Source: a bacterium (GTDB taxonomy: Bacteria; Patescibacteriota; Saccharimonadia; Saccharimonadales; SZUA-47). From it: DNA of 64,000 nucleotides. Position numbers and translations under genes: made by a program. The stretch spans positions 38,436-102,435 of the forward strand of contig RFTN01000002.1 of assembly GCA_009923445.1 (NCBI GenBank), written 5' to 3'. Each line of letters begins with the position of its first letter. Position 1 is the stretch's first letter. The notes beneath the pieces were generated by a model that was given only the letters and a program-made list of their open reading frames with translations, was not told the DNA's origin and did not search any database. Below, one piece after another: positions 13,905 through 59,680 of the stretch.

Positions 13905-14256
13905 GATTTGCTCCGTAAAGCCTGTCTTGGGTTAAACAAATATCGATTATTGCACTAACTAACTGATGTGGACTTTCTTGAATTTTTGGATTTGGTGAAA
14001 ACTTACTGAGTTCTGTAACCCACACACCAAGCCCTCTTTCAGTTGTATTGATGTATGGATCTGTTCCTGACCATTCAACTATGTTGTAGCAACCAGGGCT
14101 CAATTCATCACCACAATTCCACTGATTTAAATATATACCTTGAGTTTCGTCAGATTCGTCTTCTCCAGGGAATAAAAAACTTTCACGCAATGTCCACGCA
14201 GCATCAAGAATGACAGGGTCATACGCTTGATCGATGGATATTCGTGCATCAGACAT
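13897..14256 (-). CDS. hypothetical 119-aa protein embedded between atpA and atpG
   Basis: ATG 14256 directly follows the atpA TAA stop (TAAATG). Its last 8 nt overlap the atpG start. The atpG GGAG SD (13914..13911) lies inside it. I recognise no motif. Confidence 0.6.
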   Translation of the reverse strand: MSDARISIDQAYDPVILDAAWTLRESFLFPGEDESDETQGIYLNQWNCGDELSPGCYNIVEWSGTDPYINTTERGLGVWVTELSKFSPNPKIQESPHQLVSAIIDICLTQDRLYGANHG

Positions 14257-27938: not shown

Positions 27939-27958
27939 GTGGGCAAGGAGGGACTTGA
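27939..27958 (-). repeat. exact 20-nt duplicate of the tRNA-Leu 3' end (T-loop to acceptor end)
   Basis: gtgggcaaggagggacttga at 27939-27958 is identical to 28135-28154. A degenerate third copy (gggagggactttgacc) lies at about 27980-27995. Confidence 0.8.
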
Positions 27959-28103
27959 CTTGCCACCAAAATGGAAAAGGGAGGGACTTTGACCTTTCGC
28001 ACAAAAGAAAAATTACTTTTGTGCATGAAACCCCTTCGGGGCTAAAGGGCGGCCAAAGCCCACGGGGCTTTGTCGTTCAAGTACTTCTTGATCTAACAAA
28101 TTA

Positions 28104-28128
28104 AAGACCGGTCTAACGACCGGTTCTT
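28104..28128 (-). terminator. hairpin downstream of tRNA-Leu (terminator-like)
   Basis: aagaccggtc / gaccggt(t)ctt stem with a taac loop, followed on the minus strand by taatttgtt. Confidence 0.5.
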
Positions 28129-28132
28129 AATT

Positions 28133-28218
28133 TGGTGGGCAAGGAGGGACTTGAACCCTCACAACCTTGCGATCACTGGATTTTGAGTCCAGCGCGTCTA
28201 CCATTCCGCCACTCGCCC
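28133..28218 (-). tRNA. tRNA-Leu(CAA), class II with long variable arm, CCA encoded
   Basis: I folded it by hand. Acceptor GGGCGAG/CTTGCCC, anticodon stem CTGGA/TCCAG with loop CTCAAAA, T arm GAGGG-TTCAAGT-CCCTC, 3' ACCA. Confidence 0.9.
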
Positions 28219-31327: not shown

Positions 31328-32371
31328 GTGGGCACGCATACGAATGTTATAGAAATAAACGGCACAACCTACGATGCTGTGAGCGGTGTGGTTGTACGTT
31401 CACAAAATAGTACTACAGTAGTAGATGGTATTGTGCGTCGCTCAAAAGATACGCACACTCACCGACAAGTCGGTCACTCAGCCGTTAAATTACGCCCTAA
31501 ACCACAAAAATCCACTACTCTTATGCGTAGTGCTGTAAAAAAGCCACACACATTACATGTTTTAGATGTTCAAAAGCCTAAACCATCGGTTCCGTTGAGC
31601 GTTCATAATAAAAATACCATAGCAAAAAAATCTTACGATATACCAGAACAACGCAAGCAACGAGCTGAATTAGTTGTAAAAAGTGAGCAGATAAAAAAAT
31701 TCTCAGCAACACAATCGGGAGCTACGTCACATATAAATCTAACAGAGATACGTCCGACGCCACTATACGATAACTCAATCGAATATTCGCGACCTTCTCA
31801 TATTAAAAAAGCAGATCTACTCGAAAAAGCTATGCAGGCAGCACAGGGCCATAATGAACCTGCGTATAAGCACAAAGAGAAGTTGCACCATAAAATCGCA
31901 AAAAAAATCGGTATTAGTGGGCGGGCCGTAGCAATAACTTCGACCGTGCTCGCAGGCGTATTGGTTGGAGGGTTTTATGCGTATCAAAATGTGCCAAAGC
32001 TTGCCGTGCGCGTTGCATCAAATCGAGCTGGAATAAAAGCTAGCATACCAACGTATAGTCCGGCTGGCTTTTCAATTAATGGGCCCATTCAGTACAGATC
32101 AGGGCAGGTGGTAGTCGGCTTTAAGTCAAACATTGATGAACGCAACTATACGTTAACGCAGCAAAATACATCATGGTCAAGTGATACGCTGCTTGATAAC
32201 TTTTTGGTCAATAACAAAAAACAATACCAAACGTACCAAGACAAAGGCCGCACAATTTACATTTACGATACAAATAATGCAACCTGGATTGACGACGGTA
32301 TTTGGTACCAAATTGAGGGTCAATCGCAGCTGAGTAGCGACCAACTTGTGCGTATAGCTAGCAGTCTATAA
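31328..32371 (+). CDS. hypothetical single-pass membrane protein
   Basis: GTG start, a basic N-terminal half, a TM (AITSTVLAGVLVGGFYAY) and an extracytoplasmic C-terminal domain. Confidence 0.5.
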   Translation: MGTHTNVIEINGTTYDAVSGVVVRSQNSTTVVDGIVRRSKDTHTHRQVGHSAVKLRPKPQKSTTLMRSAVKKPHTLHVLDVQKPKPSVPLSVHNKNTIAKKSYDIPEQRKQRAELVVKSEQIKKFSATQSGATSHINLTEIRPTPLYDNSIEYSRPSHIKKADLLEKAMQAAQGHNEPAYKHKEKLHHKIAKKIGISGRAVAITSTVLAGVLVGGFYAYQNVPKLAVRVASNRAGIKASIPTYSPAGFSINGPIQYRSGQVVVGFKSNIDERNYTLTQQNTSWSSDTLLDNFLVNNKKQYQTYQDKGRTIYIYDTNNATWIDDGIWYQIEGQSQLSSDQLVRIASSL

Positions 32372-34039
32372 AACTTGTAATCGAGCCTTAACTCTCTTTA
32401 TACCCATGACTTGCATGATTGTATATAAATCAGGTGTGCGATCTTTGCCGGTCAGTTTTACGCGCAGAATTTTAGCAAAATCAGCTACATTACCCTTAAA
32501 AGCATTAGGGTCTGCCTTAAATGCTTTGTTATCTGTTGCAAAACCAGTCACCGTAGCAGCTTTTTTGAGCTTTTCGAACCAAGTCGGTTGATCATCGTCA
32601 GGATCGTAAGTAGCAAAAAACGCTTTGCAAACATCTGTTAAAGTGGTGGTATCGAAAGCTTCTAGCAACGCGCCTATTTGGGGTGCAAAATCAGCCTCAT
32701 ATAACTCATCAAAAAAATAGCCATACTGATCCGGACCGTCACTCCATTTAGCAATATCTTTACGCCGCTTATCGCCAAATCGTTCAATGGACAATACTGC
32801 GGTGAGGTACTGTTTATCGGCATTGTTTAGCGCTGCTCTGAATGCTTTGTTTGTAGAATGCTTTAATTCCGCTTCGAATTCTTCGATCGGCAAGCTAGCA
32901 ATGTATTCTTTGGTGTAGTCGTCTAATTTAGCCGTATCTAATAACGGAGCCCTACTAGCAGATAGTTTTTTTAAAGATATCCTGAAGTCTGCAAGCGGTT
33001 TGTTGGGATTTGCCCTATACCAATCCTCGAAACTACTATCGGCGAGCCCTAGAAGGTATGGTTTAATTCCTTCAATAGGGTACCCTTGATTTAACCAATA
33101 CTGTACGTCGGCCTCGGGGTCTTTGCGTTTACTGAGCTTGCGCTTTCCACCGCCATTACTATCCATAATGCTAATTGGTGCAAAATGAGCATAGCTATAA
33201 CGTGGAATGCCCAAAGCGTCACAAAGCTCAATATGCAGCGGTGTGCTTGGCAACCATTCGTCACCACGCAATACAAAAGTAGTTTTCATTAAATAATCAT
33301 CGACTACATGCGCCAGATGATATGTTGGCAGTTGCGACCCGTCGGCCTTAATTAATGGTACGTCTAAATCGTTTTCGGGCAGTTCAAGGTGACCCTTGAG
33401 CACATCGTCAAATCCGACTCGCTTGTCGTGGCTGCCATTCGATTTAAAGCGCAATACGAATGGCATGCCAGCATCTAGCTGTGCGGCAATTTCTTGGTCA
33501 GACCTATCTCGCCAGAGCGCCCACTTACCGTAATAGCCTGGGCGTACTTTAGCTGCTTGCTGTGCTGTATAGCTGGCATCCAATTCCTCTTTTGTAGCAA
33601 AACAAGGGTAGGCGCGACCTTTTTGCAGCAAATCGACTGCATAACTTAAATACAATTCACGACGCTGACTCTGTAAGTAGGGACCATACGCACCGTAGCT
33701 ACTGCCATCGGCTTTAACACCTTCGTCGGGCACTAAATCGAATGCATTTAATGCAGCTACGATTTGCGCTATACCGTCTGTAATTTCTCGCTTTTTGTCA
33801 GTATCTTCGATGCGCAGCATATAAACACCGCCGGTTTGACGTGCCAAATACTGATTTAATAGGCACATGTATATGGTGCCAATATGCAAAAAGCCAGTTG
33901 GGCTAGGTGCGCTGCGGGTAACAATTGCGTCTGCTGCTAAGCCGCGTGGTGGGTATGAAGCCTCAATGTCTTGGCGAGACCGTAGCGTGACATCGCTTAG
34001 TAATAGGCTTTGTATTCGGTCAATTGTTTGCTGATTCAT
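32366..34039 (-). CDS. gltX: glutamate--tRNA ligase
   Basis: Class I HIGH motif (APSPTGFLHIGT), RIEDTD and KMSKS-type KLSKRK. Confidence 0.9.
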   Translation of the reverse strand: MNQQTIDRIQSLLLSDVTLRSRQDIEASYPPRGLAADAIVTRSAPSPTGFLHIGTIYMCLLNQYLARQTGGVYMLRIEDTDKKREITDGIAQIVAALNAFDLVPDEGVKADGSSYGAYGPYLQSQRRELYLSYAVDLLQKGRAYPCFATKEELDASYTAQQAAKVRPGYYGKWALWRDRSDQEIAAQLDAGMPFVLRFKSNGSHDKRVGFDDVLKGHLELPENDLDVPLIKADGSQLPTYHLAHVVDDYLMKTTFVLRGDEWLPSTPLHIELCDALGIPRYSYAHFAPISIMDSNGGGKRKLSKRKDPEADVQYWLNQGYPIEGIKPYLLGLADSSFEDWYRANPNKPLADFRISLKKLSASRAPLLDTAKLDDYTKEYIASLPIEEFEAELKHSTNKAFRAALNNADKQYLTAVLSIERFGDKRRKDIAKWSDGPDQYGYFFDELYEADFAPQIGALLEAFDTTTLTDVCKAFFATYDPDDDQPTWFEKLKKAATVTGFATDNKAFKADPNAFKGNVADFAKILRVKLTGKDRTPDLYTIMQVMGIKRVKARLQVL

Positions 34040-34118
34040 GAGTGGTATTTTAGCACTTTTTGTATCTGTTTGTAATCATGCCAAATATTCTGTACACTTA
34101 AACGTAAGCGACTTACCT

Positions 34119-35366
34119 ATGGATGATATGTTTATTGCACCAAAAAAGAAACCGTCGAAATTAGTCTTTCGACGCAAGCAGCCGGCGCAGATCGACACTC
34201 CTACTGAGCCGGTTGTTGCGCCCCCTAAAATAGATGCAAATCAAAAACAAGATTCAAAGCCAGAACCCCCTAAAGTATCACCACCTAAAAAAGCGAACTG
34301 GTTTAAACGAACACCGTTAAAAAAGAAACTATTCATCGCGATACCTATAGCCGTATTACTCGTGAGCGGTGGGGCTGTGTTCGCGCTACGACCTCGTAAA
34401 CAACCAGTACCAACGCCAGCACCTGTTGTTGAAAAAATAGAGGAACCCCCAAAGCCAACAACCGTCGCTAGCTCACTAACGGGCGTACAAATAAGTCCAG
34501 AGTTAAACAATCGCGGGGTAACGGCAGTTATGATAGAAAATAGCATCGACGCTCGGCCACAATCGGGACTAATAGACGCAGGACTGGTTTTTGAAGCAAT
34601 AGCCGAGGGTGGCATTACGCGCTTTGTGGCACTTTATCAAGAATCACAGCCTGACTATATAGGACCCGTACGGAGCGCGCGACCCTATTATATAGATTGG
34701 ATACTACCATATGACCCAACGTATGCCCATGCAGGCGGTAGTCCAGAAGCGCTCCAAATGATACAGAATCTTGGCATGAAAGACATGGACCACGGAGCCA
34801 ACGGGTCAGCCTATCAGCGTGTGTCTAACAGGTATGCGCCGCATAATTTATATACCTCTATGGCTAACCTTGACGCAATACGCAACAAAAATAACTGGGC
34901 TGGCAAGCCTTTTAGTGGCTTTATGCGTAAGCCAGACCAAGCAGTTGCTACAAAAACAGCCACCGCAATAGATTTGCAAATATCGAGCGCGTTGTTTAAT
35001 GTGCACTACGATTACGATGCAGCCTCGAATAGTTATTTACGTAGCGAGGGTGGCAGACCGCACGTCGACGAAAAAACCGCAAAGCAACTGCAACCTAAAG
35101 TTGTTGTTGCATTAATAGTTCCATACAGCATTCACCCCGATGGTATACACAGCAAGTACCAAACTATCGGCAGCGGGCAAGCTCTAGTTTTTCAAGACGG
35201 TAACATGCAGGAAGCAACCTGGACTAAAGCATCTCAAAATTCTATGATTACGTTTACAGATGCGGGGGGTAGGGTATTGGCGCTCAATGCCGGTCAAACA
35301 TGGGTCACCGCAGTCGGTGATCGTGGCATGGTGACCTTTGTAGCTCAGCCGGTTACACCTCAGTAG
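34119..35366 (+). CDS. DUF3048-family secreted/membrane-anchored protein (YerB-like)
   Basis: TM plus Pro-rich linker, then VMIENSIDARPQSGLIDAGLVFEAIAEGGITRFVALY. I moved the start to ATG 34119 because the track's 34038 start overlaps the divergent gltX start. Confidence 0.65.
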   Translation: MDDMFIAPKKKPSKLVFRRKQPAQIDTPTEPVVAPPKIDANQKQDSKPEPPKVSPPKKANWFKRTPLKKKLFIAIPIAVLLVSGGAVFALRPRKQPVPTPAPVVEKIEEPPKPTTVASSLTGVQISPELNNRGVTAVMIENSIDARPQSGLIDAGLVFEAIAEGGITRFVALYQESQPDYIGPVRSARPYYIDWILPYDPTYAHAGGSPEALQMIQNLGMKDMDHGANGSAYQRVSNRYAPHNLYTSMANLDAIRNKNNWAGKPFSGFMRKPDQAVATKTATAIDLQISSALFNVHYDYDAASNSYLRSEGGRPHVDEKTAKQLQPKVVVALIVPYSIHPDGIHSKYQTIGSGQALVFQDGNMQEATWTKASQNSMITFTDAGGRVLALNAGQTWVTAVGDRGMVTFVAQPVTPQ

Positions 35367-35368
35367 CT

Positions 35369-36904
35369 ATGGATACATACAAGGTACTTACCAACAAGGC
35401 CGTAGCGCGCATTTTTTGGCTTTATAGCGCCAATGCATTCGTTATTATTGGGTTATGGCTTGCACTTGCATATTATGGTGTATCGAGCACAATATCACTC
35501 GCTGTTATGCTTAGCGTTTTACTTGTTTTATTGCTATTAAGCTCTTACTGGGTGGTGAACTTTACTATGAAGCCACTTGCTTATGTGCGCCAAGGCATAC
35601 TCCATGTAAGCAGCAACACATCACGGCTGTCTGCGCCGCAAGTAGAAGAGCTTCAATTTGGTCGTGAGCTTGCAACACAGCTGCTCGGCAACGTCTACAC
35701 AATGGCTGCCCAAACAACACATACAACCAGACAACAACAAGCGACGACCGAAGTAGCCTACGACCAAACATTCCTTAATGCATTACCCACGCCCGTATTC
35801 ACTGTTACAGGTTCTGGCGTACTCCATTATATAAACGACGCTGGTTTATTATTTTTAGGGCAACCCATTACCGCCAGAGCAGAGCTACAAAACAAGAATA
35901 TTTATGACGTGCTAAACCTAACATTTCCAAACGAAGCTACCTACGAAACATGGCTACAAAACGCTCGTAGTAAGGTATTAAAAGCAACAATAAGTTGGGA
36001 GCGAGTTCGACTAGTCGATGCTAATAACACACCTATAAAGCAATTTGATATGGCGGCAAGCTATAGCAAAGCAGGTGGCGAAATTGAATCGATCATCACT
36101 ATATTTGATCATAGTGATTTGTATAATAAAGATGATCAAGAGATTAGTTTTGTAGCAATGGCGGTACATGAGCTGCGTACCCCCCTTACGGTAATGCGTG
36201 GCTATATTGAGGTGTTCGAGGACGAGCTCGGCCCAACTCTCAGCCCTGAGCTAAAAGACTTTATGCATAAAATGAATGCGAGCGCACAGCAGTTAACAGC
36301 ATTTGTAAGTAACATACTAAATGTCGCACGAGTAGAAGAAAACCAGCTTCTGCTTACCTTACAAAAACATAATTTAAAAGAAATTATGGTTAGTGCCGTC
36401 AGCGACTTGCAGTTGCGTGCAGCGGTACACGGCAAGCACATTGAGTTATCAGTGCCAGATACTATACCAGATGTAGCAGTTGACCGAATTAGTTTGCACG
36501 AGGTCATAAACAACTTGGTAGATAATGCAATTAAATACAGTGATAAAAGCGATAAAATTATAATTTCGGCGCACACCGAGTCTGGCATGGTGCAAATAGA
36601 CGTACAAGATTTTGGACTCGGCATACCCGATTCGGTAGTACCAAAACTTTTTGATAAATTTTATCGTAGCCACCGCAGTAAAGTACAGATAGGCGGTACG
36701 GGTTTAGGCCTTTACTTATGCAAGGCAATTGTTACTGCACTAGGTGGCAACATTTGGGTACATACAAAAGAAGGTGCAGGTAGCACATTTAGCTTCACTA
36801 TCGAACCGTACAGCGAAGACAAACATGCAGCTGGCGCAAGCCAAGATGGTATCATGAGAGGAGCACATGGCTGGATTAAGAACCATTCTATGTACCGAAG
36901 GTAA
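35369..36904 (+). CDS. membrane-bound sensor histidine kinase
   Basis: Two N-terminal TM helices, H-box FVAMAVHELRTPLT, N-box NNLVDNAIKYS, G-boxes DFGLGIP / GGTGLGLYLCK. Confidence 0.85.
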   Translation: MDTYKVLTNKAVARIFWLYSANAFVIIGLWLALAYYGVSSTISLAVMLSVLLVLLLLSSYWVVNFTMKPLAYVRQGILHVSSNTSRLSAPQVEELQFGRELATQLLGNVYTMAAQTTHTTRQQQATTEVAYDQTFLNALPTPVFTVTGSGVLHYINDAGLLFLGQPITARAELQNKNIYDVLNLTFPNEATYETWLQNARSKVLKATISWERVRLVDANNTPIKQFDMAASYSKAGGEIESIITIFDHSDLYNKDDQEISFVAMAVHELRTPLTVMRGYIEVFEDELGPTLSPELKDFMHKMNASAQQLTAFVSNILNVARVEENQLLLTLQKHNLKEIMVSAVSDLQLRAAVHGKHIELSVPDTIPDVAVDRISLHEVINNLVDNAIKYSDKSDKIIISAHTESGMVQIDVQDFGLGIPDSVVPKLFDKFYRSHRSKVQIGGTGLGLYLCKAIVTALGGNIWVHTKEGAGSTFSFTIEPYSEDKHAAGASQDGIMRGAHGWIKNHSMYRR

Positions 36905-36909
36905 ACACT

Positions 36910-37290
36910 ATGGATAAAAAACCGAACTTACTGTGTATAGAAGACGAAAACTTTATTGGCGAACTTTATACGCGTGCACTAACCCATGCAGGGTATGACG
37001 TAAAAGTTATAGCAGATGGGGAAGCTGCATTGGCCGAATCATTAACAAACGCATACGATATTATATTGCTCGATATTATGCTGCCGAGTATGAGTGGTGT
37101 AGAAATACTACGGCGCCTAAAAGACCAATCACAAACTCCGCCACTAAAGGCTAAAATTATAATTACAACCAATTTAGACCAAGAAGAATCAACCCGCGAA
37201 AAAATTGAAAAAATGGCAGATGGCTACTTGGTTAAAGCCGAAATTACACCTCGTGAACTTGTAGCTTATTTACAGCAAATCAAACTGTAG
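36910..37290 (+). CDS. stand-alone receiver-domain response regulator (no output domain)
   Basis: LLCIEDE, DIILLDIMLPSMSGVEILRRLK, and a conserved Lys in ADGYLVKAEI. Only 126 aa. Confidence 0.85.
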   Translation: MDKKPNLLCIEDENFIGELYTRALTHAGYDVKVIADGEAALAESLTNAYDIILLDIMLPSMSGVEILRRLKDQSQTPPLKAKIIITTNLDQEESTREKIEKMADGYLVKAEITPRELVAYLQQIKL

Positions 37291-37612
37291 TTTGTGTAAT
37301 TATATCTTGTAAATTAGCCCTATAAAATACAACAAAATGCTTATGTACACGCCAACTGCTGCAGGTATATACTTAGTACAGCTATGAGGGCACTGGTGGG
37401 AATCCCAATTTTTGCACTCAAGCTTTACACTGAGTTTTAAACTCTAAAAAGCACTCTAGAGATACCAATCTCTACATATACAAGTGTCTAGTCATGAACA
37501 TGCAGCAGAACGGTTGCTATTGTTTTATCTAGCTACTCCTCAAACATAAATCCGTTCCAACTAACAGATTTAGTTGTCTATTAACTGCTACTTAAAATTT
37601 GAGGAGATGTAT

Positions 37613-37855
37613 ATGCATCAAGAGATTTATGTCACAAGTTTTTACTTTGCAAAAGGCAACACCAAAAAGAGCTATCCGCGCCGCATAGAGACCAGCGAAG
37701 GCAAACAAATAAACTTTATAGAAGAAGGCTTACGCTGTGTCGTTCAAAAAGGCCAAGAATTGATTGAAATTTTTACAATGAGTGATGGCCAGATAACTTA
37801 TCGTATTGGCCATCAGCAACGTGGAAACGAATGGTTGCTATTAAGCACGCAATAA
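37613..37855 (+). CDS. hypothetical small protein
   Basis: GAGGAG SD at 37601-37606, then ATG 37607/37613 (MHQEIYVTSF...). Confidence 0.45.
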   Translation: MHQEIYVTSFYFAKGNTKKSYPRRIETSEGKQINFIEEGLRCVVQKGQELIEIFTMSDGQITYRIGHQQRGNEWLLLSTQ

Positions 37856-37890
37856 TTTGAATAATTCTAAGTTTGTTGTATAATATAGTC

Positions 37891-38214
37891 ATGCTTTACG
37901 TACCCGAATTACCCAACCAACACTGCAAAGAAGCAGCAATAACGCAGCTTTTTTTGTACAATACAGCGTTAGACATCGAGAAAATGCTTGGGAACGGAAT
38001 TGATGCGTCAACCGGTGAGCCAATTACCGAACAACAAATTATCGGTAGACAAATGCGCCTTAACATTGCTAGCAAATACCTATCGAGCGCCGTTAGTGAA
38101 TGTATGAGTTGCCAAGTATACAAAGATAGTGATACAAATGGCTGTCCAAACGACATTAAAACAGATGATCAACAGCAGCCATTGTTTGGTTTTATACGCA
38201 CCATATTGCTCTAA
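37891..38214 (+). CDS. hypothetical small protein
   Basis: ATG 37891 lies 6 nt after TATAAT (37879-37884). The track's TTG 37873 start lies inside the promoter. Confidence 0.45.
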   Translation: MLYVPELPNQHCKEAAITQLFLYNTALDIEKMLGNGIDASTGEPITEQQIIGRQMRLNIASKYLSSAVSECMSCQVYKDSDTNGCPNDIKTDDQQQPLFGFIRTILL

Positions 38215-38228
38215 ACATAAAATGCATT

Positions 38229-38651
38229 TTACGAACGTGGCAACGGACACAGCTTAACGACTAGCGCAAGAGCATCTATGTGGGTGTATAAACCACTTGA
38301 TGCAAATTCTAATACCGCTGCTCCTACTGGGTTAACTGATGTATTGCTACTTTTAAGTAAATCTACTTTATCGTTTATATCGTTTGCAGAGGCAACACCA
38401 ATTGACCACACCTTGCTAAAATCTAGGGTTATGCGTTGCAGCGGTACAGAAACTGCAATTATAGGTATGCTTTGTTCTGGGTTTTGGGGTGTACCAATCC
38501 AGTAGGCTGCTTTATTACCGTTAAGGGTTGGGGCGGGGTATGCCTTGTCAGGTATTTTGTAGGCATTACAGTATGAGTTGAGGTCGCCAACAGCAAAACG
38601 GCGTAGTAGTGGCCTAAAATGCGGATCATATGTTTCGATGCTGTGATTCAC
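38229..38651 (-). CDS. hypothetical protein
   Basis: 140-aa ORF with no recognisable motif. Confidence 0.45.
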   Translation of the reverse strand: MNHSIETYDPHFRPLLRRFAVGDLNSYCNAYKIPDKAYPAPTLNGNKAAYWIGTPQNPEQSIPIIAVSVPLQRITLDFSKVWSIGVASANDINDKVDLLKSSNTSVNPVGAAVLEFASSGLYTHIDALALVVKLCPLPRS

Positions 38652-38744
38652 TTTAAAATTACATTACAGCAACAAATAAAATATGCAAACTATAATCTAC
38701 CGATAAAATGTGGTAAAATTGTGCGAAGTCTACCACCTAAGCAA

Positions 38745-38798
38745 GGTCCCGTCGTCTAGCGGTTAGGACATCTGGTTCTCATCCAGAAGATCGCGGGT
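38745..38798 (+). pseudogene. 5' 54 nt of tRNA-Glu(CUC) (acceptor 5' strand through the 5' half of the T arm), lacking a 3' partner
   Basis: 54/54 identical to 38919-38972. It is followed by unrelated hairpin-rich sequence instead of the T-loop. Confidence 0.8.
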
Positions 38799-38918
38799 GA
38801 AGCTTGCCGGTGGCAAGCTGCAAGGCAACCTTCCGACGAAAACTTGTTTTCGATAGCGAAGTTGCGGGGTCGCCGAAGGTGACCGAGTCTTGAGTCGAAC
38901 CTTTATAATATAAACTAT

Positions 38919-38994
38919 GGTCCCGTCGTCTAGCGGTTAGGACATCTGGTTCTCATCCAGAAGATCGCGGGTTCGAGTCCCGCCGGGATCACCA
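38919..38994 (+). tRNA. tRNA-Glu(CUC), CCA encoded
   Basis: I folded it by hand. Acceptor GGTCCCG/CGGGATC (one G-U pair), D arm GTCT-AGCGGTTA-GGAC, anticodon arm TCTGG-TTCTCAT-CCAGA, T arm GCGGG-TTCGAGT-CCCGC, ACCA. TATAAT at 38904-38909 lies 9 nt upstream. Confidence 0.9.
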
Positions 38995-39002
38995 AACTAA
39001 GA

Positions 39003-39029
39003 ATTTCACCGATAGTGTGGAATTTTTTT
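39003..39029 (+). terminator. intrinsic terminator after tRNA-Glu
   Basis: aatttcac / gtggaatt stem (one G-U pair) followed by a T7 run. Confidence 0.6.
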
Positions 39030-39130
39030 GTTTGGTCAACACTTGGCAGGCGGGACGAGAACGGTTGTGCCGGTGGCACAAGCTGGTCTCAACGCCCCTA
39101 GACAATACGTAAGGATTGACGTGGGGTTGC

Positions 39131-39145
39131 TTGGTCAAAATGAAT
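39131..39145 (+). repeat. 15-nt direct repeat ttggtcaaaatgaat (left copy)
   Basis: Identical to 44743-44757. The 8-nt core ttggtcaa also occurs at 39032-39039. Confidence 0.5.
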
Positions 39146-39168
39146 ATTTTTACATTTTGACTGCAAGG

Positions 39169-39190
39169 CGAGTCCCGCCGGGATCACCAA
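39169..39190 (+). repeat. 22-nt duplicate of the tRNA-Glu 3' end (T-loop nt 56 to CCA plus 1)
   Basis: cgagtcccgccgggatcaccaa is identical to 38974-38995. A 9-bp hairpin follows at 39209-39233. Confidence 0.8.
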
Positions 39191-39268
39191 GTTAGATAAA
39201 AGATTGAAATTAGGCTGATTTTTCCAGCCTAATCTTATTCGTGGAACACCTATAGTAGTTTTTTACTC

Positions 39269-39335
39269 ATGGTTACATAACATAATCCTTATGGTTACAT
39301 ATTGTATCTGTTAATATCTACTTATGGTTACATAT
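39269..39335 (+). promoter_or_regulatory. three direct repeats ATGGTTACATA(A/T) upstream of the Fic gene (operator/iteron-like)
   Basis: Copies at 39269-39280, 39291-39302 and 39324-39335. The last two are identical over 16 nt (cttatggttacatatt). Start-to-start spacings are 22 and 33 nt. Confidence 0.5.
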
Positions 39336-39356
39336 TCAAATAATTGATGGTACAAT

Positions 39357-40514
39357 ATGCACATTATGTTAACCATTCCCGAGCCATCATTTAAATCAAG
39401 CCTGACCGACCTAATTGTTGAGCTAGAAGGATTAAGAAATAAAAACGTATCGGGTACTGCAAAGCCATGGATATTTATTGAGCTCAAGAACTTATTCCAT
39501 ATAGTAGAAGCACTCAGCTCAGCAAGAATTGAAGGAAACCATACGACGCTCGCAGATTTTATAGACGCACAGCTTAGCCTAGACTTACAAAACGAAGAGC
39601 TAAATGAGATCTCGAACATCATTAAATGTCTAGACTTTATAGATAAGAATATCTCAACTCTGGATATAAATAAGGCATTTATACTAGAGTTGCACAAACA
39701 GGTTGTCAAAGGACTGAGTACTGCTAAAGAAGGAGATTCACGAATCGGCTCATACCGTAAAGAGCCTCGCAAGATTGCAAATTCTCAGCATGTGTTACCT
39801 CAGCCAGGTGACATAGACGATCTTATGAGGGAGTTATTAGCCTTCATAAACGAAAAAACTGAGCCTAAACTGGACCTTCTAAAGGTAGCCATCGCTCATC
39901 ACCGTTTTGTTTGGATACACCCGTTCGGCAACGGTAACGGTAGAGTCGTACGACTACTGACTTACTCCATGCTTTGCAAGCAGGGCTTTATTACAACTGG
40001 GCTAACTAGGCTCTTTAACCCTGCGGCAGTATTCTCTGGTGACAGACAAAAATACTACGATATGCTCGAAATTGCAGATATAGGTACAGACGCCGACATA
40101 CTGTCATGGTCTGAATATGTATTAAGTGGCCTACGTGACGAGGTAAAAAAATCCCAGCAGCTTACTGATGCAAAGTTTGTAAGATATAATATACTCGCTC
40201 CAACCCTTGATTGGGCTGAAGAAAAAAACATATTGAATGAACTTGAAGCAAAAGTACTACGGAGATTAGTTAAGAAGGATTCTATAAAAGCCGCAGACAT
40301 CAGAGACCTATGGCCGAGTGATTTTTCCCATGTCGTTGTATCTAAATTTTTGAGGAAACTTCGCAAGCAAAATTTCGTAAGACCACTTAAAGAAAATGGC
40401 CGTGAATATGTTCTTAAATTTACTGGCAATAAACTGACGCGTGGCATCTTGGAACAAATGGAGAGCCAAGGCATGCTACCAGTACACGTCGATGAACTGT
40501 CCAGGAGTAAGTAG
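39357..40514 (+). CDS. Fic-domain protein (AMPylase family) with an N-terminal inhibitory-helix motif and a C-terminal winged-helix-like region
   Basis: Fic motif HPFGNGNGRVVR, N-terminal SARIEG matching (S/T)xxxE(G/N). ATG 39366 is an alternative start. Confidence 0.85.
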   Translation: MHIMLTIPEPSFKSSLTDLIVELEGLRNKNVSGTAKPWIFIELKNLFHIVEALSSARIEGNHTTLADFIDAQLSLDLQNEELNEISNIIKCLDFIDKNISTLDINKAFILELHKQVVKGLSTAKEGDSRIGSYRKEPRKIANSQHVLPQPGDIDDLMRELLAFINEKTEPKLDLLKVAIAHHRFVWIHPFGNGNGRVVRLLTYSMLCKQGFITTGLTRLFNPAAVFSGDRQKYYDMLEIADIGTDADILSWSEYVLSGLRDEVKKSQQLTDAKFVRYNILAPTLDWAEEKNILNELEAKVLRRLVKKDSIKAADIRDLWPSDFSHVVVSKFLRKLRKQNFVRPLKENGREYVLKFTGNKLTRGILEQMESQGMLPVHVDELSRSK

Positions 40515-40668
40515 CAGTTCATTTCAAATCTAGATTAATTTTTGAAGTTTTACATCCAACTCACCAATCGCATCCACAAAAGTGTTCCACCCATTTCCCG
40601 GTAGGCCCACCAAACTAGATAACGGATACGAATTGACAATTATGCAATCAAATCGTATAATTCAACCA

Positions 40669-41217
40669 TCACCAAGACAGGCTACCTTGCAGAGTGCGTC
40701 TCTCAAGAAAATGCCTGTCATTTTTTTGCTCTAATTTTGTTTTCTTAGTACTTATGTAGTCTATTTTATGTACAAAGGGTTTTAGTAACTTGGAATATTT
40801 ATTCTTGTTATGTACAAGAATCTTCTTTAGCTTATTATTTTCTTCTAAGTATTCGTACAGGCACAAAAAGTCGCCATCACCACTAACAATAACTGCCTCG
40901 TCGTAGTCTTTAAACAGTCTTGCTGCGGAATGCAGGACAAGTTCTGCGTCTACATTTCCTTTGGTAGCTTTTTTACCATATTTAAAATAATGTTGTGTAG
41001 GTTTAAACACAAGTATGTAGCCAGCATTTTGAAGATAAAAATATAGCTTTTGGTTTTCGGGCATTTGTCCTATAAATAAGTATGCTTTTTCGACGTGATA
41101 CGTGTCGTTTAAAAAGCGCCTAAACTTTACGAAATCAAGCTTCCAGCCAACAGTTCTCACACCCAAATTAAGATTCTGACTATCTATAAATGCAAACGTG
41201 GAAGCGTGTTTTTTCAT
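40669..41217 (-). CDS. NYN-domain (LabA-like) putative ribonuclease
   Basis: FAFIDSQNLNLG at the N-terminus and VIVSGDGDFLCL. Very AT-rich: one 60-nt line (40741-40800) counts 15 G+C. Confidence 0.75.
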   Translation of the reverse strand: MKKHASTFAFIDSQNLNLGVRTVGWKLDFVKFRRFLNDTYHVEKAYLFIGQMPENQKLYFYLQNAGYILVFKPTQHYFKYGKKATKGNVDAELVLHSAARLFKDYDEAVIVSGDGDFLCLYEYLEENNKLKKILVHNKNKYSKLLKPFVHKIDYISTKKTKLEQKNDRHFLERRTLQGSLSW

Positions 41218-41422
41218 TACAAATAGTATCTCATAATCTTTTTCATTTTGCTGTTTTTTGTAAAGTTCGATATTCTTGGGAAATCACCAAGAAAAGCGCC
41301 TTGCTTTTGTAACGACCTCGCCCCACTATTATCAAGTTGGAATTTGACTGGATTGACACCAATTGCAAACAAAATCGATGCAAAGTCTATGGTGACTTAG
41401 AAGTTGTAAAATACGTCGCTAA

Positions 41423-42634
41423 CTAGGTATTGGCGTCTAACGAGCCGTCTACAAAAGCTAGCATTGCTACATAATTTGTTGCACGTCCTTTAGTTCCGTC
41501 ACCTAAAGAGTGCTTTTTTCCTACTGGCAAGAAAGTTAAGCCATGAAAGACGTCGGTTGGATCTAGCTTTGTATTGCTAAAGGCGCAGTTATCCATAGTG
41601 GCTGCGATGAGCGGTAACGCTTCTGTATCTGGTGGAGTTTCGGGATCAAACGAACTAGTAATTAAGTAAAGATTGTTCGGGCACAAGCCTTGCTCTGCAA
41701 GGCCAATAGGCATAGAAGCTCTCCTTTGAGCAGAGGTCATTCCGGGCATAAAGGCGCCAATACTTCTCCATGAGTCAGTTGTCGGTGGATTAGTTGCTAT
41801 AACAGACTTAATTCTGCCTGTCTCATGGAGGTTTCGTAACACTGTTAACTGCTCGGCACTAACACCTGGAATTTGTGCATTCGGAGTGCCTAAAATGTAG
41901 GCAAGCGTACCGCCTGCCGACACACCAGCAAGCACTATGTCTCGATTAGGTGCAGCTGCCATCACATTTTGCAGTGCATCAATTGCATCCTCATATGCTG
42001 TAGGGAATGTTTTGCCAACATTAGTTTTTCTATAATCAATCGCAGCTATATCAAATCCATAATCTACCATTGCGAGTATCCCTGGGCTTACCGACTTCAG
42101 CGCATCAGTATCGCCTCCTACAAAACCTCCACCATAAGCAAAAACAACTATAGGATTTTCGGATGGAGTATCTGCCTGTTTTACGGTTTTTGTGCGGTAA
42201 TCTATAGGTGACTCATAAAAGACATATTTCTGATGCTGTTCTTGACCATACCAGACAGTAGCTGGTTCTATTTTGTGATACCAAGAAGTGTAGTCTTTTT
42301 CTGCGGTAAAAAGTTCATTAGTGGTAGGCATGGGCACTATTTCAAAAGACGCTTCGATAGGTTGCGTAGTGGTTTCAGGCACGTTGATTCGATCAGCTGT
42401 GGCAGTCACTTCAACCGGCGCTTCAATCGAACTCAAGGCAGTCGTTGGCGTTGAAGGGTAGAGTGGACTAATTTCACTTTCAAACACTTCAGCCTGTTGA
42501 CGCACTTGGGTCTCACCTGCAGTTGAACTATCTAAACCACAACCTTGCAACAGCAATCCCGTTGCTATTAGCACGCTTCTAAGATGGGGTTTTCTAGGAG
42601 CGTGCAGCTGTTCAGGGCTAGGATGGTACTTCAT
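41423..42634 (-). CDS. lipoprotein alpha/beta-hydrolase (esterase/lipase, GGGF oxyanion type)
   Basis: Lipobox LLQGC, FAYGGGFVGGD, nucleophile elbow GVSAGG. Confidence 0.7.
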   Translation of the reverse strand: MKYHPSPEQLHAPRKPHLRSVLIATGLLLQGCGLDSSTAGETQVRQQAEVFESEISPLYPSTPTTALSSIEAPVEVTATADRINVPETTTQPIEASFEIVPMPTTNELFTAEKDYTSWYHKIEPATVWYGQEQHQKYVFYESPIDYRTKTVKQADTPSENPIVVFAYGGGFVGGDTDALKSVSPGILAMVDYGFDIAAIDYRKTNVGKTFPTAYEDAIDALQNVMAAAPNRDIVLAGVSAGGTLAYILGTPNAQIPGVSAEQLTVLRNLHETGRIKSVIATNPPTTDSWRSIGAFMPGMTSAQRRASMPIGLAEQGLCPNNLYLITSSFDPETPPDTEALPLIAATMDNCAFSNTKLDPTDVFHGLTFLPVGKKHSLGDGTKGRATNYVAMLAFVDGSLDANT

Positions 42635-42824
42635 ATCAATATACTAACATTTATGAAAGTTTATTTTGTATAAGCACCATAGAATGTCATGCGTAGTTCT
42701 GACATGACCTAACTTCTAATTTGCCAAGAATTTGAAGTAACATGTATGTAAGCCCCCCATTACGCACAACATGTCTCGGGTTAAGAGGCATATAATATAT
42801 ACAAAAGGAGCCCAATATATACGC

Positions 42825-43038
42825 ATGCAGGTAAACGTCACATCCAAAGATACGTAACAATGTATTGTCTGGTATTAAAAGTGGTATGACACAAACAGAA
42901 GCTGCCGACGTGTATGGTGTTAATCTAAATACAGTGAGCACATGGTGTCGTCAAGATGTTGTGGGTGGTGAGAAAAACTACCTCATACAAATAAACCAAC
43001 TAAAACGTGAACTAGATAATGCTACCGTGTCATATTGA
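42825..43038 (+). pseudogene. frameshifted/truncated IS-type transposase N-terminal HTH (OrfA-like) remnant
   Basis: TATAAT 42791-42796, AAAGGAG 42804-42810 and ATG 42825 open a 10-codon ORF. In the next frame comes ...NVLSGIKSGMTQTEAADVYGVNLNTVSTWCRQ...INQLKRELDNA*, an HTH followed by a coiled-coil start. No catalytic (DDE) part follows. Confidence 0.4.
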
Positions 43039-58450: not shown

Positions 58451-58645
58451 TCATAAACTCTTTCTGTAGTGTTGTAAACTACGTTTATCCACAATTTGTG
58501 TCGATAGCGACAATGATGCGTAGTAATATTCACATACAACTTTTTATGCACAAATAGCTACTACGTGGTAAAATATAATTGTAATAACACTTGTTTGACT
58601 TATATAAATATTTGTTGTATTATTAACTTAATAAAAGAGAGTTAT

Positions 58646-59680
58646 ATGGCAGAAACCGATAAAGCAACTACACTACATATTGAGAAAACGATAGGTAACA
58701 TACTTGATGTTATTGACCGCGAGCGAGAGCGAGAAATTATTTCACGCCGCTACGGATTATTTGATCGAAAAGAAACCCTCGAGCAAATTGGGGAGCTTTT
58801 AGGTATTACCCGCGAACGCGTTCGACAACTTGAAAAATCTGTCATTTTACGCTTAAAAGCAGCTGCTGAAAAAGACCTACAAGACATCGAAGATATTAGT
58901 GATGTATTTAAACAAGAAATTGTTAAACTTGGTGGTGTAGCGCGTATAAGCGATCTTACTGCCACATTAGTAGAAAATCCGACTAAACTAGATCAGTCGC
59001 GTGTTTCGTTTTTAGCACAACTTGTACCGAGCCTAGCTTTTGTAGATGAAAGCGACCACTACCATATGACCACCGGTTTAGTCTCATTACACAGCGAAAA
59101 GGCTATCCGTGATCAAGTCGGGTACGTTATTGAAGCAATTAAAAAAATAGGCCAACCTGCAAAAATCGAAGAGATTGCCGGATCACTAGGCGATCCTAGC
59201 GCAGAACATGTACGAGCACTTGCAAGTATTAGCAAACACCTAGCGCATTTAAATGGTCGCTGGGGCCTTGCAAAATGGCCAATGGTTAACCCTAAAAACA
59301 TTCGTGACAAAATATATGTTATTTTGCACGAAAATGGCAAGCAAATGCACTTTAACGAAATTGCTAAATCTATTCGTGATAGCGGCTTTAAGCGTAAAGA
59401 CGTTACTACCCAAGCTATTCACAACGAACTTATCAAAGATGGTCGTTTTGTATTGGTTGGCCGTGGTATTTACGCCTTAAAAGAGTGGGGCTATAAGAAG
59501 GGGACTGTTTCTGACGTTATTACTGAGGTATTAACAGAAGCTAAAGAGCCTTTACACCGAGACGAAATTGTTAAACGCGTACTTAAAAAACGTTTTGTTA
59601 AAGAAACAACTATTTTGCTTAACTTACAGGGCAAGCCCGAATTTAAGCGCGTCGCTAAAGCTACGTACGCACTAGCTTAG
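58646..59680 (+). CDS. sigma-70 region-4-like HTH protein with a C-terminal HARE-HTH-like domain
   Basis: RRYGL...TLEQIGELLGITRERVRQLEKSVILRLK (r4.2-like). The C-terminus has MHFNEIAKSI...FVLVGRGIYALKEW. I moved the start from the track's GTG 58565 to ATG 58646. Confidence 0.6.
   Translation: MAETDKATTLHIEKTIGNILDVIDREREREIISRRYGLFDRKETLEQIGELLGITRERVRQLEKSVILRLKAAAEKDLQDIEDISDVFKQEIVKLGGVARISDLTATLVENPTKLDQSRVSFLAQLVPSLAFVDESDHYHMTTGLVSLHSEKAIRDQVGYVIEAIKKIGQPAKIEEIAGSLGDPSAEHVRALASISKHLAHLNGRWGLAKWPMVNPKNIRDKIYVILHENGKQMHFNEIAKSIRDSGFKRKDVTTQAIHNELIKDGRFVLVGRGIYALKEWGYKKGTVSDVITEVLTEAKEPLHRDEIVKRVLKKRFVKETTILLNLQGKPEFKRVAKATYALA

Follow-up and report, generated by a model that had tools for sequence, protein, structure and literature searches.

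Partial copies of a tRNA gene are usually taken as footprints left by kilobase-sized, integrase-carrying islands, and a displaced tRNA fragment with its start in the T-loop is the classical mark of a tRNA-targeting integrative element; Williams reportedly sorted tRNA/tmRNA integration into sublocation classes in 2002. Smaller relatives of such systems include the CIMEs associated with the ICESt elements of Streptococcus thermophilus, which have att sites without an integrase and are mobilised in trans. IS200/IS605 PATEs and REP/RAYT sequences are hairpin-defined elements moved in single-stranded form by HUH transposases, and the tRNA-linked repeats behind E. coli tyrT are 178-bp units that each contain the last 19 nt of tRNA-Tyr. 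The Islander database covers tRNA/tmRNA genomic islands and prophages, their tyrosine integrases and the T-loop sublocation (PMC4383910), and tandem or degraded partial tRNAs like those reported here have also been described for tycheposons (10.1101/2020.12.28.424599).

Here we analyse a 64,000-nucleotide stretch of DNA (the window) from a Candidatus Saccharimonadales (Patescibacteria) bacterium, in which a 5′ fragment, an intact gene and a 3′ fragment of tRNA-Glu(CUC) follow one another on the same strand (Table 1). An earlier interpretation made without database searches (the sequence-only reading) had taken these pieces for one tRNA split in its T-loop by a 370-nt insert carrying a complete replacement gene. 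Its anatomy held up: the extent and perfect identity of both outer pieces, the common orientation, the intact gene with its TATAAT box, the breakpoints in the T-loop and the lack of any ORF within 38799-39168 were all recovered. Direct reading of the sequence also confirmed that T55 is in neither outer piece, the 5′ repeat stopping at T54 and the 3′ repeat spanning T-loop nt 56-60. Because T55 is missing, the outer fragments do not rejoin into a clean tRNA, and joining 38798 to 39169 yields a 6-nt T-loop. Neither the 54-nt nor the 22-nt repeat is expected by chance (0 for either in 100 shuffles of the window), and neither has a further copy elsewhere in the window. As a whole, the intact tRNA and its partial copies look like the work of protein-less miniature elements or their scars, and not of one 370-nt insert; the fallback offered by the sequence-only reading, decayed integration scars or a small non-autonomous tRNA-targeting element, comes close to what the comparisons below show.

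Table 1. Features of the tRNA-Glu(CUC) and tRNA-Leu(CAA) loci, in window coordinates
Feature	Coordinates	Strand	Basis or remark
Sister module behind tRNA-Leu(CAA)	27939..28132	-	sequence read; fold z = -3.9
20-nt 3′ fragment TCAAGTCCCTCCTTGCCCAC in tRNA-Leu module	27939-27958	-	perfect 3′-end repeat 193 nt downstream
tRNA-Leu(CAA)	28133-28218	-	
5′ fragment, tRNA-Glu(CUC) nt 1-54	38745..38798	+	54/54 identity to full gene; ends at T54
A-core, conserved three-hairpin module	38799..38887	+	covariance-model hit, 108.6 bits
A-core start: GAAG, then H1	38801-38819 (H1)	+	
CTGCAAGG in A-core, after H1	38818-38825	+	
H2 of A-core	38830-38861	+	
H3 of A-core, GGTCGCC-GAA-GGTGACC	38868-38884	+	
3′ end of unit A: inverted, diverged copy of tRNA 3′ end	38878..38918	+	
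-10 box TATAAT of intact tRNA-Glu	38904-38909	+	9 nt ahead of tRNA
Intact tRNA-Glu(CUC)	38919..38994	+	ARAGORN; Rfam tRNA model, 65.5 bits
Terminator-like AT-rich hairpin and U-run	38999..39029 (about)	+	fold; inverted repeat I6
Unit B, interrupted T-arm	39049..39168	+	fold z; comparisons
T-stem 5′ strand-like GGCGGGAC of unit B, then GAGAAC	39049-39056 (GGCGGGAC)	+	
H1′ of unit B, TGCCGGTGGCA top common with H1	39062-39085	+	11-mer shared with H1
H2′ of unit B	39094-39127	+	
Right-end hairpin of unit B, ending CTGCAAGG	39128-39168	+	
3′ fragment, tRNA-Glu(CUC) nt 56-76 plus A	39169..39190	+	22/22 identity
Second terminator-like hairpin	39209..39233	+	called by terminator scan; conserved in L035

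The intact copy is presumed to be the functional tRNA-Glu(CUC) gene. Judged by alignment, the 5′ fragment is a pseudo-copy at the probable position of the ancestral gene: 38600-38744 can be aligned with the region ahead of the lone tRNA in the related locus L007 (z 3.8; 3/1000 shuffles), unlike unit A, which gave no alignment there. Together with the next 17 nt, this piece scores 28.2 bits against the Rfam tRNA model, just below the 29-bit threshold, and mutations in the equivalent 5′ fragments of L035, L089 and L144 mark it as a pseudogene. The original downstream flank lies directly 3′ of the 3′ fragment. Positions 39169-39252 are 82% identical to the flank directly after the intact tRNA in L035 and 94% identical over 36 nt to that of L127, and the second terminator-like hairpin is probably the original terminator of the locus. 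The intrinsic terminator that had been proposed after the intact tRNA folds like one, but it is an AT-rich stem on which the consensus scan made no call; its base extends by pairing of the tRNA ACCA with a downstream UGGU. A tRNA-terminator-TGGT layout also occurs at plain loci such as L006, the single plain, non-syntenic locus that a scan of a genome collection returned.

An assembly artefact does not account for the arrangement. A collapsed or chimeric repeat, which the sequence-only reading had named as a possible undoing of its claim, is extremely improbable, even though the source is a MAG from sample SAMN10254649 / SRR8075950 and the three assemblies with identical sequence (NCBI MAG GCA_010031135.1, an ENA assembly and Logan contigs) may come from one sample. 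In the Logan k=31 assembly, contig ends coincide exactly with the limits of the 54-nt repeat, as expected of a real repeat, so that both junctions exist in reads, and the 22-nt repeat is shorter than k. Furthermore, the same order of 5′ fragment, unit A and intact tRNA is found in the unrelated samples L127, L035, L015/L029, L089 and L042.

Comparison across related Saccharibacteria divides the locus in two. The upstream unit (174 nt) consists of tRNA nt 1-54, the A-core, a T-loop remnant and the -10 box, unit A itself being 120 nt; the downstream unit (195 nt) runs from a terminator through a remnant T-stem strand and an insert of three hairpins to nt 56-76. A metagenome scan that required an exact 28-mer listed at least 120 loci. 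Among the approximately 123 tRNA-Glu(CUC) loci listed, about 100 (about 84%) have neither unit, approximately 6 have the upstream unit only (L127, L035, L015/L029, L089 and L042), approximately 15 have the downstream unit only (L007 and about 14 others), and the window alone has both. The comparison of empty and filled sites that the sequence-only reading had proposed revealed variation, with empty loci for each unit, and the units also proved to occur apart. L007, which is syntenic with the window (GluRS, DUF3048, HK, RR and small ORFs), contains one tRNA and the downstream unit only, and in L127 and L035 the 5′ fragment, unit A and tRNA are followed directly by the flank that lies beyond the 3′ fragment in the window, without the 195-nt downstream unit. 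These upstream-only and downstream-only states show, at the level of sequence, that the two halves are separable units, each bounded by direct tRNA repeats (54 nt and 22 nt, respectively).

The A-core is defined by its fold. In the covariation analysis, which takes in only five distinct A-core sequences, 96.9% of cells are paired, versus 25-49% with the partners slid, and 14/26 pairs have changed on both sides; the observed values were reached in 0/500 shuffles. One invariant G.U pair and several other G.U cells occur together with no A.C cells, which indicates that the core folds on the tRNA-sense strand. The covariation in these alignments thus shows a conserved secondary structure on that strand. 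No Rfam family matches the A-core. The 3′ end of unit A contains the inverted repeat I2, 24 nt that are 71% complementary to 38970-38993 (20 nt at 80% in the L029 equivalent), and the T-loop remnant TCGAACC at 38895-38901 lies upstream of TATAAT, an order that recurs in L015 and L089.

The distribution of the core is uneven. Unit A of the window is approximately 95% identical to that of L127 and L035, versus approximately 70% for coding genes. The A-cores of L127 and L144 are very different, despite a common right flank with 89% identity over 617 nt. In L144 one core is nested within the H3 strand of another, after TTTCGGGT, and L102 carries an inverted copy. The core is not confined to tRNA-Glu: L009 has an A-core (92.6 bits) inserted within a module behind tRNA-Leu(CAA). 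The window has the sister module at its own tRNA-Leu(CAA), without the core, and the first 60 nt of its body match L009 at 59/60 positions; it comprises a terminator, a diverged tRNA-Leu-like body, AGGGGT^hairpin-GCGAAAGG^TCAAAGTCCCTCCC and GGCAAG^TCAAGTCCCTCCTTGCCCAC (^ marking a junction). As far as these alignments reach, the distribution of the A-core is inconsistent with vertical descent.

Unit B is likewise structured. The segment 39049-39190 folds alone into a closed, interrupted T-arm (z = -6.0), in which three hairpins lie inside a helix formed by GGCGGGAC with GUCCCGCC from the 3′ fragment. Its left-end-like hairpin reads GGCGGGAC^GAGAAC-H1′, and its right arm resembles that of the tRNA-Leu module in the window (z 4.0; 3/500). 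The left junctions have the common form GGGT^GA(A/G)A-hairpin, with GGGT or GGT ahead of the insert in the six compared and degenerate versions (GGGAC, GGGC or GCGG-T) in three further ones; H1, which covaries, lies 2-3 nt from the left junction. GCAAGG-type right junctions have the common form hairpin-GCAAGG^(T)C(G/A)A. Contiguous T-arm insertions in L009 and L144 have two ends that match the outer junctions of the window, which read GGGT^GAAG-hairpin (left) and hairpin-CTGCAAGG^CGAG (right). Those insertions are without target duplication, and the units of the window are instead flanked by long repeats.

Several of these traits recall PATE and REP elements: the modules are small and non-coding and fold in a strand-specific manner. 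A hairpin close to each end, conservation of structure over sequence and, in L009 and the nested copy of L144, insertion 3′ of GGGT^ without target duplication may be further parallels. On the other hand, the hairpin at the left end is not a copy of the one at the right, no more than one or two copies occur per 64 kb, and the long tRNA direct repeats of the window are not a known feature of that family. Tyrosine-integrase islands offer another partial parallel, since an intact tRNA accompanied by a displaced fragment from the T-loop to the 3′ end, as direct repeats, and a hot spot with variable gene content downstream are common to both. The present locus differs in the lack of an integrase among the ORFs scanned, in the small size (174-195 nt) and non-coding nature of the units, in one unit that displaces the 5′ part and brings a promoter, the mirror of the usual situation, in repeats that fall short of the full T-loop, and in an insert with a conserved, covarying three-hairpin core. 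The claim that the pattern fits no described element was too strong for the displaced fragments starting in the T-loop, which are classical; the unusual features are the small size without any protein, the displacement of a 5′ fragment and a hairpin core that is conserved. T-loop-interrupted tRNA-Glu copies in Saccharibacteria were not found described in the literature.

A search of the window for an integrase, which the sequence-only reading had suggested for the rest of the genome, gave none: in 40 of the 47 window ORFs of at least 170 aa, Phage_integrase, Resolvase and Recombinase had no match, no transposase was found and no TnpA, TnpB or RAYT was seen, which leaves any mobilising enzyme hypothetical. 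In other lineages a large-serine-recombinase (LSR) element adjoins the same tRNA-Glu. In L029 and L137-L142 the 3′ end of the LSR gene overlaps the tRNA in antisense and is accompanied by RHH, Replic_Relax and DUF3768, and in L029/L015 the 5′ fragment, unit A and tRNA are followed at once by the recombinase gene. Over 10 kb, the LSR loci L137-L142 have neither unit A nor a tRNA fragment; a tRNA fragment is also missing from the far ends of the elements, and tblastn of the LSR against the window matched only 22 residues from the antisense strand of the tRNA itself. The LSR element was rejected as a source of A or B, there being no sequence relation. No free form, either a circle or an empty site with its donor, was observed. 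In being protein-less DNA between att-type repeats at a tRNA-type site, with a presence that varies among relatives, the units resemble CIMEs; known CIMEs, however, are kilobases long, and the present comparisons yielded no autonomous partner element with the same arms.

We regard it as evenly poised whether the modules are miniature, non-autonomous T-loop-targeting units, or scars of them, acted on in trans by a putative enzyme. One working tRNA-Glu(CUC) would be bracketed by two broken pseudo-copies, each interrupted in its T-loop by a protein-less, hairpin-rich module from a family of approximately 40-135 nt, and the modules may be mobile units or deletion remnants of larger ones. Entry into the palindromic T-arm (5-bp stem, 7-nt loop) would proceed via an enzyme supplied in trans. 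This could be a site-specific integrase of the T-loop class, the 174-nt and 195-nt units then being tiny circles in integrated form, by which the 5′ or the 3′ part of the gene is restored, with predicted circle joints GCGGGT^GAAGC and GCAAGG^CGAGTCCC; or it could be a single-strand HUH-type transposase that reads the hairpins. Gene conversion would hold the repeats identical to the live gene, and recombination between repeats may delete units to give the upstream-only, downstream-only and plain forms. Several points may count against such T-loop-targeting units: the repeat of a classical tyrosine integrase should include the crossover region, and here the 5′ repeat stops at T54 and the 3′ repeat starts at C56; unit B of the window shows no significant similarity to the common downstream-unit family (z < 1); and high conservation with covariation could also mean a host-selected RNA. 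A stronger version is a tentative proposal that we lean against: that the A-core and its relatives form an undescribed class of protein-less, structure-defined modules (approximately 40-135 nt) that enter Saccharibacteria tRNA T-loops (GGGT^T). The enzyme in trans would then read the T-arm hairpin together with the module's own hairpins, and some versions would carry or regenerate a promoter and tRNA part, such that the host keeps a working gene.

Three other explanations bear on the same observations. The sequence-only reading would make 38799-39168 a single composite element that entered the resident gene between nt 54 and 56 with a promoter, tRNA-Glu and terminator of its own, the other forms in relatives being deletion derivatives via the 22-nt or 54-nt repeats. 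Its outer ends do match the family ends, which bound one contiguous insertion in L009 (Leu) and L144; the L029/L015 layout with a serine recombinase is what an autonomous version would be expected to look like; and the excess of downstream-only over upstream-only loci among those listed would follow if the longer 54-nt repeat recombined more often. We consider it unlikely, however, because the units are separable, T55 is absent from both outer fragments and B, with its own T-stem strand and left-end-like hairpin, closes on itself. Furthermore, the common downstream-unit family is unrelated both to the window's B and to LSR DNA, the LSR loci L137-L142 are devoid of A and fragments as described above, no second locus among those listed has both units, and the 5′ fragment of each genome follows the tRNA variant of that genome and not a common element-borne one.

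Alternatively, the modules could be host-selected structured ncRNAs derived from tRNA duplicates and kept by selection rather than mobility, for example a tRNA-like leader or decoy co-transcribed with tRNA-Glu, or a 3′ RNA ending in a mimic of the T-arm and acceptor. The strong strand-specific covariation, the conservation of A relative to coding genes, the folds of B and the Leu module, and 3′ fragments that follow each lineage's own acceptor sequence are consistent with such RNAs; moreover, the stretch from an upstream promoter-like box to the intact tRNA contains no terminator, which would make A part of the transcript as a leader. We nevertheless find this quite unlikely, given that most of the related loci listed have neither unit, that the A-core differs between close relatives and exists in nested, tandem and inverted copies, that the 5′ fragments decay as noted above and the 3′ fragments drift by 1-3 mismatches (L007, L052, L084, L088 and L112), that the 5′ fragment with A folds no better than shuffles (z -1.1), and that no Rfam family is matched. 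Finally, tandem duplication by unequal crossing-over or template switching at the T-arm, followed by decay and gene conversion from the live copy, would require no mobile element and would liken the units to those behind tyrT. L098 and L110 each have two full tRNA-Glu copies at a distance of 0.8-1.7 kb, two downstream units lie in tandem in L129, the downstream-unit bodies appear to resemble diverged tRNA (D-loop TGGT, an anticodon-like arm and a T-stem strand), and GGTTCGAACC is a palindrome. The tyrT repeats are also similar in that units of approximately 175-195 nt lie downstream of a tRNA, each ending in its 3′-terminal ~20 nt, in tandem in L129; they differ in being mutual copies via unequal crossing-over, the present units differing in sequence, including 5′ fragments and bearing a mobile-looking structured core. 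Duplication alone seems very unlikely, since it leaves unexplained both the constant junction motifs and a non-tRNA A-core that covaries, is nearly identical in distant genomes and also occurs at tRNA-Leu and nested within another core.

Other candidates were rejected. Group I tRNA introns share the phylum and interrupt tRNA genes with structured RNA-like sequence, but their insertion points, 35/36 and the classical sites, are in the anticodon loop, and group I models recognise them. The present break falls at 54/55-56, the exons are incomplete and the interrupted copies decay. No intron family was matched at E <= 10 in 37500-40500, and with T55 missing a group I or other self-splicing intron was discarded. 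A split, trans-spliced tRNA of the archaeal type was dismissed because the organism is bacterial, complementarity between the beginning of A and the end of B is limited to 5 bp and the halves are separate in relatives. No model hit supported a T-box riboswitch or tmRNA, and a retroelement primer-binding site was set aside because the inverted 3′-end copy is only 71% complementary and there is no reverse transcriptase. With Rfam 15 at gathering thresholds only two tRNAs pass in the whole window, no family matches the modules of the tRNA-Glu or tRNA-Leu locus at E <= 10, and a permissive search of six related loci returned only tRNAs and one sub-threshold hammerhead in L071. A phage or plasmid origin was rejected, as blastn against plasmids and phages matched the tRNA only. 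In viral contigs the 3′-end 18-mer had five chance matches in GC-rich coding DNA, with no tRNA, and the junction 20-mer, the H3 motif and LSR relatives were not found.

The footprints described here enclose only approximately 120-175 nt of non-coding DNA with a three-hairpin core that is conserved in structure and apparently exchangeable, a core found at two distinct tRNA genes in a CPR bacterium with a reduced genome. Should the modules be mobile, they would represent a minimal cis-acting unit for T-loop-directed insertion and point to a trans-acting enzyme in Saccharibacteria; if they are host RNAs instead, they would form a new family of tRNA-derived structured RNAs. For tRNA annotation in these genomes, truncated and interrupted pseudo-copies are to be expected, one of them here falling just short of the detection threshold. 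Mobility of the modules could also explain part of the variation in gene content beside tRNA-Glu. The genes between tRNA-Glu and a conserved PAS-HK differ among the window, L007, L035 and L144, and the NYN and hydrolase segment at 40573-42897 is 92% identical to L144, versus 67-70% for core genes.

The tRNA-Glu(CUC) locus consists of an intact gene flanked by two partial copies on the same strand, as the sequence-only reading had described, with T55 absent from the 5' fragment and from the 3' fragment alike. The outer repeats of 54 and 22 nt are not expected by chance (0 matches in 100 shuffles), and neither has a further copy in the 64-kb window. The TATAAT lying 9 nt upstream of the intact tRNA and the protein-less character of the region, which contains no ORF, were likewise borne out. 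As for the proposed intrinsic terminator, an AT-rich hairpin with a U-run does follow the intact gene directly, but a consensus scan does not call it.

Coordinates and junctions of the features discussed (^ marks a junction; positions are in the window unless a related contig, L-number, is given)
Feature	Position	Strand	Detail
5' fragment, tRNA-Glu nt 1-54	38745-38798	+	54/54 identical to full gene
Intact tRNA-Glu(CUC)	38919-38994	+	
3' fragment, tRNA-Glu nt 56-76 plus next A	39169-39190	+	22/22 identical
tRNA-Leu(CAA)	28133-28218	-	
tRNA-Leu(CAA) with own downstream module	27939-28218	-	terminator, tRNA-Leu-like body, two T-loop junctions
Leu module, first T-loop junction			AGGGGT^hairpin-GCGAAAGG^TCAAAGTCCCTCCC
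Leu module, second T-loop junction	27939-27958	-	GGCAAG^TCAAGTCCCTCCTTGCCCAC; 20/20 identical to tRNA 3' part
Clean left junctions (GGGT or GGT before insert)	window, L127		GCGGGT^GAAGC
Clean left junction	L015		GCGGGT^GAAGA
Clean left junction	L009		GAGAGGT^GAAAA
Clean left junctions	L144		ACGGT^GAGTA and TCGGGT^GAAGT
Degenerate left junction	L089		GCGG-T^GATAA
Degenerate left junction	window, spacer B		GCGGGAC^GAGAAC
Degenerate left junction	L102	-	AGGGC^GAGAAC
Right junction, GCAAGG-type modules			hairpin-GCAAGG^(T)C(G/A)A
Large serine recombinase gene	L029 1466-3274	-	
Large serine recombinase gene	L137 10001-11737		
Large serine recombinase genes	L138, L139, L140, L141, L142		

Names attached to homologues of its histidine kinase, and the one genome-collection match to its tRNA, place the organism in Candidatus Saccharimonadales (Saccharibacteria). 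Comparison with related Saccharibacteria revealed loci empty for either of two units, an upstream one (the 5' fragment and the 120-nt stretch A that follows it; 174 nt) and a downstream one (a spacer and the 3' fragment; 195 nt in the window). A metagenome contig scan, seeded on an exact match to tRNA nt 27-54 that biases the census, returned at least 120 loci. Among the matches listed, about 100 are plain, with neither unit, about 15 have the downstream unit only (100-175 nt, then 18-22 nt repeated from the 3' end of the locus's own tRNA), and the window is the only one with both. In L127 and L035, the 5' fragment, A and the intact tRNA are followed at once by the sequence that lies after the 3' fragment in the window, so these loci lack the 195-nt unit bounded by 22-nt repeats; upstream units with a diverged A occur in L015/L029, L089 and L042. 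L007, which is syntenic with the window (kinase 74% identical; GluRS, DUF3048, histidine kinase, response regulator and small ORFs in shared order), has one tRNA-Glu(CUC) without a 5' fragment, after which come a terminator, approximately 150 nt and a repeat of its tRNA 3' end that has diverged slightly. Because the window sequence 5' of the 5' fragment, unlike A, aligns with the sequence 5' of the L007 tRNA (z 3.8), the 5' fragment probably marks the former gene position. Since 5' fragments are mutated in L035, L089 and L144, and several 3' fragments in relatives have 1-3 mismatches, the comparison identifies both as pseudo-copies, not exons. A tRNA intron was also considered and rejected, with no intron-model match and fragments that fail to rejoin into a tRNA; the tRNA introns known from Patescibacteria belong to group I and interrupt the anticodon loop (PMC13011429).

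The first ~90 nt of A, here termed the A-core, form three hairpins (H1, H2 and H3) with conserved single-stranded motifs: GGTGAA 5' of H1, UGCAAGG between H1 and H2, and UUNCGGGG 5' of H3. In an alignment of only five distinct sequences, 96.9% of cells are paired, compared with 25-49% for slid partners, and both sides have changed in 14 of the 26 pairs, values reached by none of 500 shuffles. One G.U pair is invariant and further G.U cells occur, with zero A.C cells, which argues that the A-core folds on the tRNA-sense strand, presumably as RNA or single-stranded DNA.

The distribution of the A-core does not fit vertical descent. A of the window is approximately 95% identical to that of L127 and L035, whose coding genes are only ~70% identical, and the A-cores of L127 and L144 differ greatly despite a common flank with 89% identity over 617 nt. 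In L144, a decayed 5' part precedes two A-cores, of which the second interrupts the first after TTTCGGGT; the rest of the interrupted core is then followed by a T-loop-to-CCA fragment and an L127-type flank. Elsewhere, the tRNA-Leu(CAA) module of L009 contains an A-core (92.6 bits), placed after GAGAGGT, and in L102 an inverted A-core adjoins an inverted 3' fragment. The L144 locus (14140-14840, minus strand) is the tRNA-Glu equivalent, and the whole 15.8-kb contig has no intact tRNA; with only the decayed part, nested cores and 3' fragment there, that genome would have to encode tRNA-Glu(CUC) at another place or do without it.

The spacer B and the 3' fragment (39049-39190) fold together with z = -6.0. 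Because GGCGGGAC in B pairs with GUCCCGCC of the 3' fragment around three hairpins, the fold model makes this a self-contained T-arm carrying a ~112-nt insert; the first hairpin of B shares its TGCCGGTGGCA top with H1. In the Leu module, the right arm (GGGGTT, an AT-loop hairpin and (G/C)(C/G)AAGG, up to the T-loop fragment) is similar to that of B (z 4.0, 3/500). The body of this Leu module agrees with L009 at 59 of its first 60 nt and looks like a diverged tRNA-Leu copy; by eye, downstream-unit bodies in general appear to be diverged tRNA copies. The common downstream-unit family joins further along the tRNA, for example at ...CCGCT^ATCCCG. Two downstream units stand in tandem in L129 (minus strand, downstream of tRNA 6384-6459, flipped coordinates), in the order tRNA, terminator, body, 3' fragment, terminator and second body start (TGGTTATTCTC...). 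In L065, ~130 nt past tRNA-Leu(CAA) (2693-2777, minus strand), lies the 3' third of a different tRNA (GAGAGTTCGATTCTCTCCCGCGCCACCA), whose T-arm and acceptor strand are complete. A hammerhead type III-like match in L071 (574-630, minus strand; core CUGAUGAG...GGACGAAA) directly follows a downstream tRNA-Glu module, at 38.5 bits, below the 48.5-bit threshold.

We favour, at roughly even confidence, a reading in which one live tRNA-Glu lies between two pseudo-copies broken in the T-loop by a family of miniature, protein-less, hairpin-defined modules, mobile or remnants of mobile DNA, acted on in trans. It is possible but doubtful that the A-core represents a truly novel class of miniature elements that target T-loops. 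The putative enzyme would recognise the palindromic T-arm. It may be a T-loop-class site-specific integrase, with the 174-nt and 195-nt units as integrated tiny circles, one kind restoring the 5' part of the gene along with a promoter and the other its 3' part along with a terminator; this would account for the direct repeats and for the existence of loci lacking either unit. Alternatively, a single-strand transposase reading the hairpins would explain why insertions are nested or lack a target duplication (L009, L144), and why structure is conserved over sequence. Gene conversion could keep the repeats identical to the live gene and, together with repeat-mediated deletion, yield the four observed locus states.

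The sequence-only reading had instead seen one 370-nt insert splitting a single tRNA; the two units occur apart in relatives, and we consider this reading unlikely. Less probable again is a structured RNA under host selection, which would suit the covarying fold and sits poorly with the scattered distribution of the core. Duplication followed by decay, with no element, does not account for the nested and tRNA-Leu-associated cores; we rate it slightly lower still. An assembly artefact is highly improbable. Logan k=31 contigs do break here, but they stop at 38774 and resume at 38943, the exact borders imposed by a real 54-nt repeat, so both junctions are present in reads; the identical sequence also occurs in GCA_010031135.1 (contig RHBH01000006.1, a metagenome-assembled genome), an ENA assembly and Logan contigs, all three of which may derive from one sample.

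A displaced downstream tRNA repeat is the textbook mark of tRNA-targeting islands (PMC4383910), and tycheposon remnants bear a comparable signature (10.1101/2020.12.28.424599). The tRNA-Glu locus shares this repeat and differs in its size of only ~0.2 kb without an integrase, in the displaced 5' fragment and supplied promoter, and in the covarying core of the inserted DNA. Of the 47 window ORFs of at least 170 aa, 40 were scanned, and none carries a domain of an integrase, recombinase or transposase. Elsewhere among Saccharibacteria, a conserved gene for a large serine recombinase (578 aa) runs antisense into tRNA-Glu(CUC) and terminates there, its stop codon being the reverse complement of the D-arm CTA, on an element that also carries RHH, Replic_Relax, DUF3768 and FtsK-like genes. 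Its DNA has no sequence relation to A or B, no tRNA fragments lie within 10 kb of it in L137-L142, and it coincides with A in L029 only; it probably exploits tRNA-Glu(CUC) independently of the modules.

Genes between tRNA-Glu and a conserved PAS kinase vary among the window, L007, L035 and L144, a pattern that marks the site as a hot spot. Next to the tRNA-Glu site, the segment with the NYN-domain and BD-FAE hydrolase genes (40573-42897) matches L144 at 92% identity, where core genes reach 67-70%, and looks like a horizontally exchanged island; it is inverted in L144 relative to the window. On the 5' side of tRNA-Glu(CUC), the order GluRS, DUF3048, histidine kinase and response regulator (32366-37290) is kept in many Saccharibacteria (L007, L008, L009, L137, L138, L144). 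Three direct repeats of the 16-mer CTTATGGTTACATATT (39266-39336; 81-100% identity, spacings 22 and 33 nt) sit just 5' of a Fic-family gene (39357-40514) and may be operator sites. Further along, a sigma70_r4/HARE-HTH/KorA-like protein (58565-59680) and a TrwB/HerA-like ATPase (61036-63600) may be parts of a type IV secretion or conjugation-like system.
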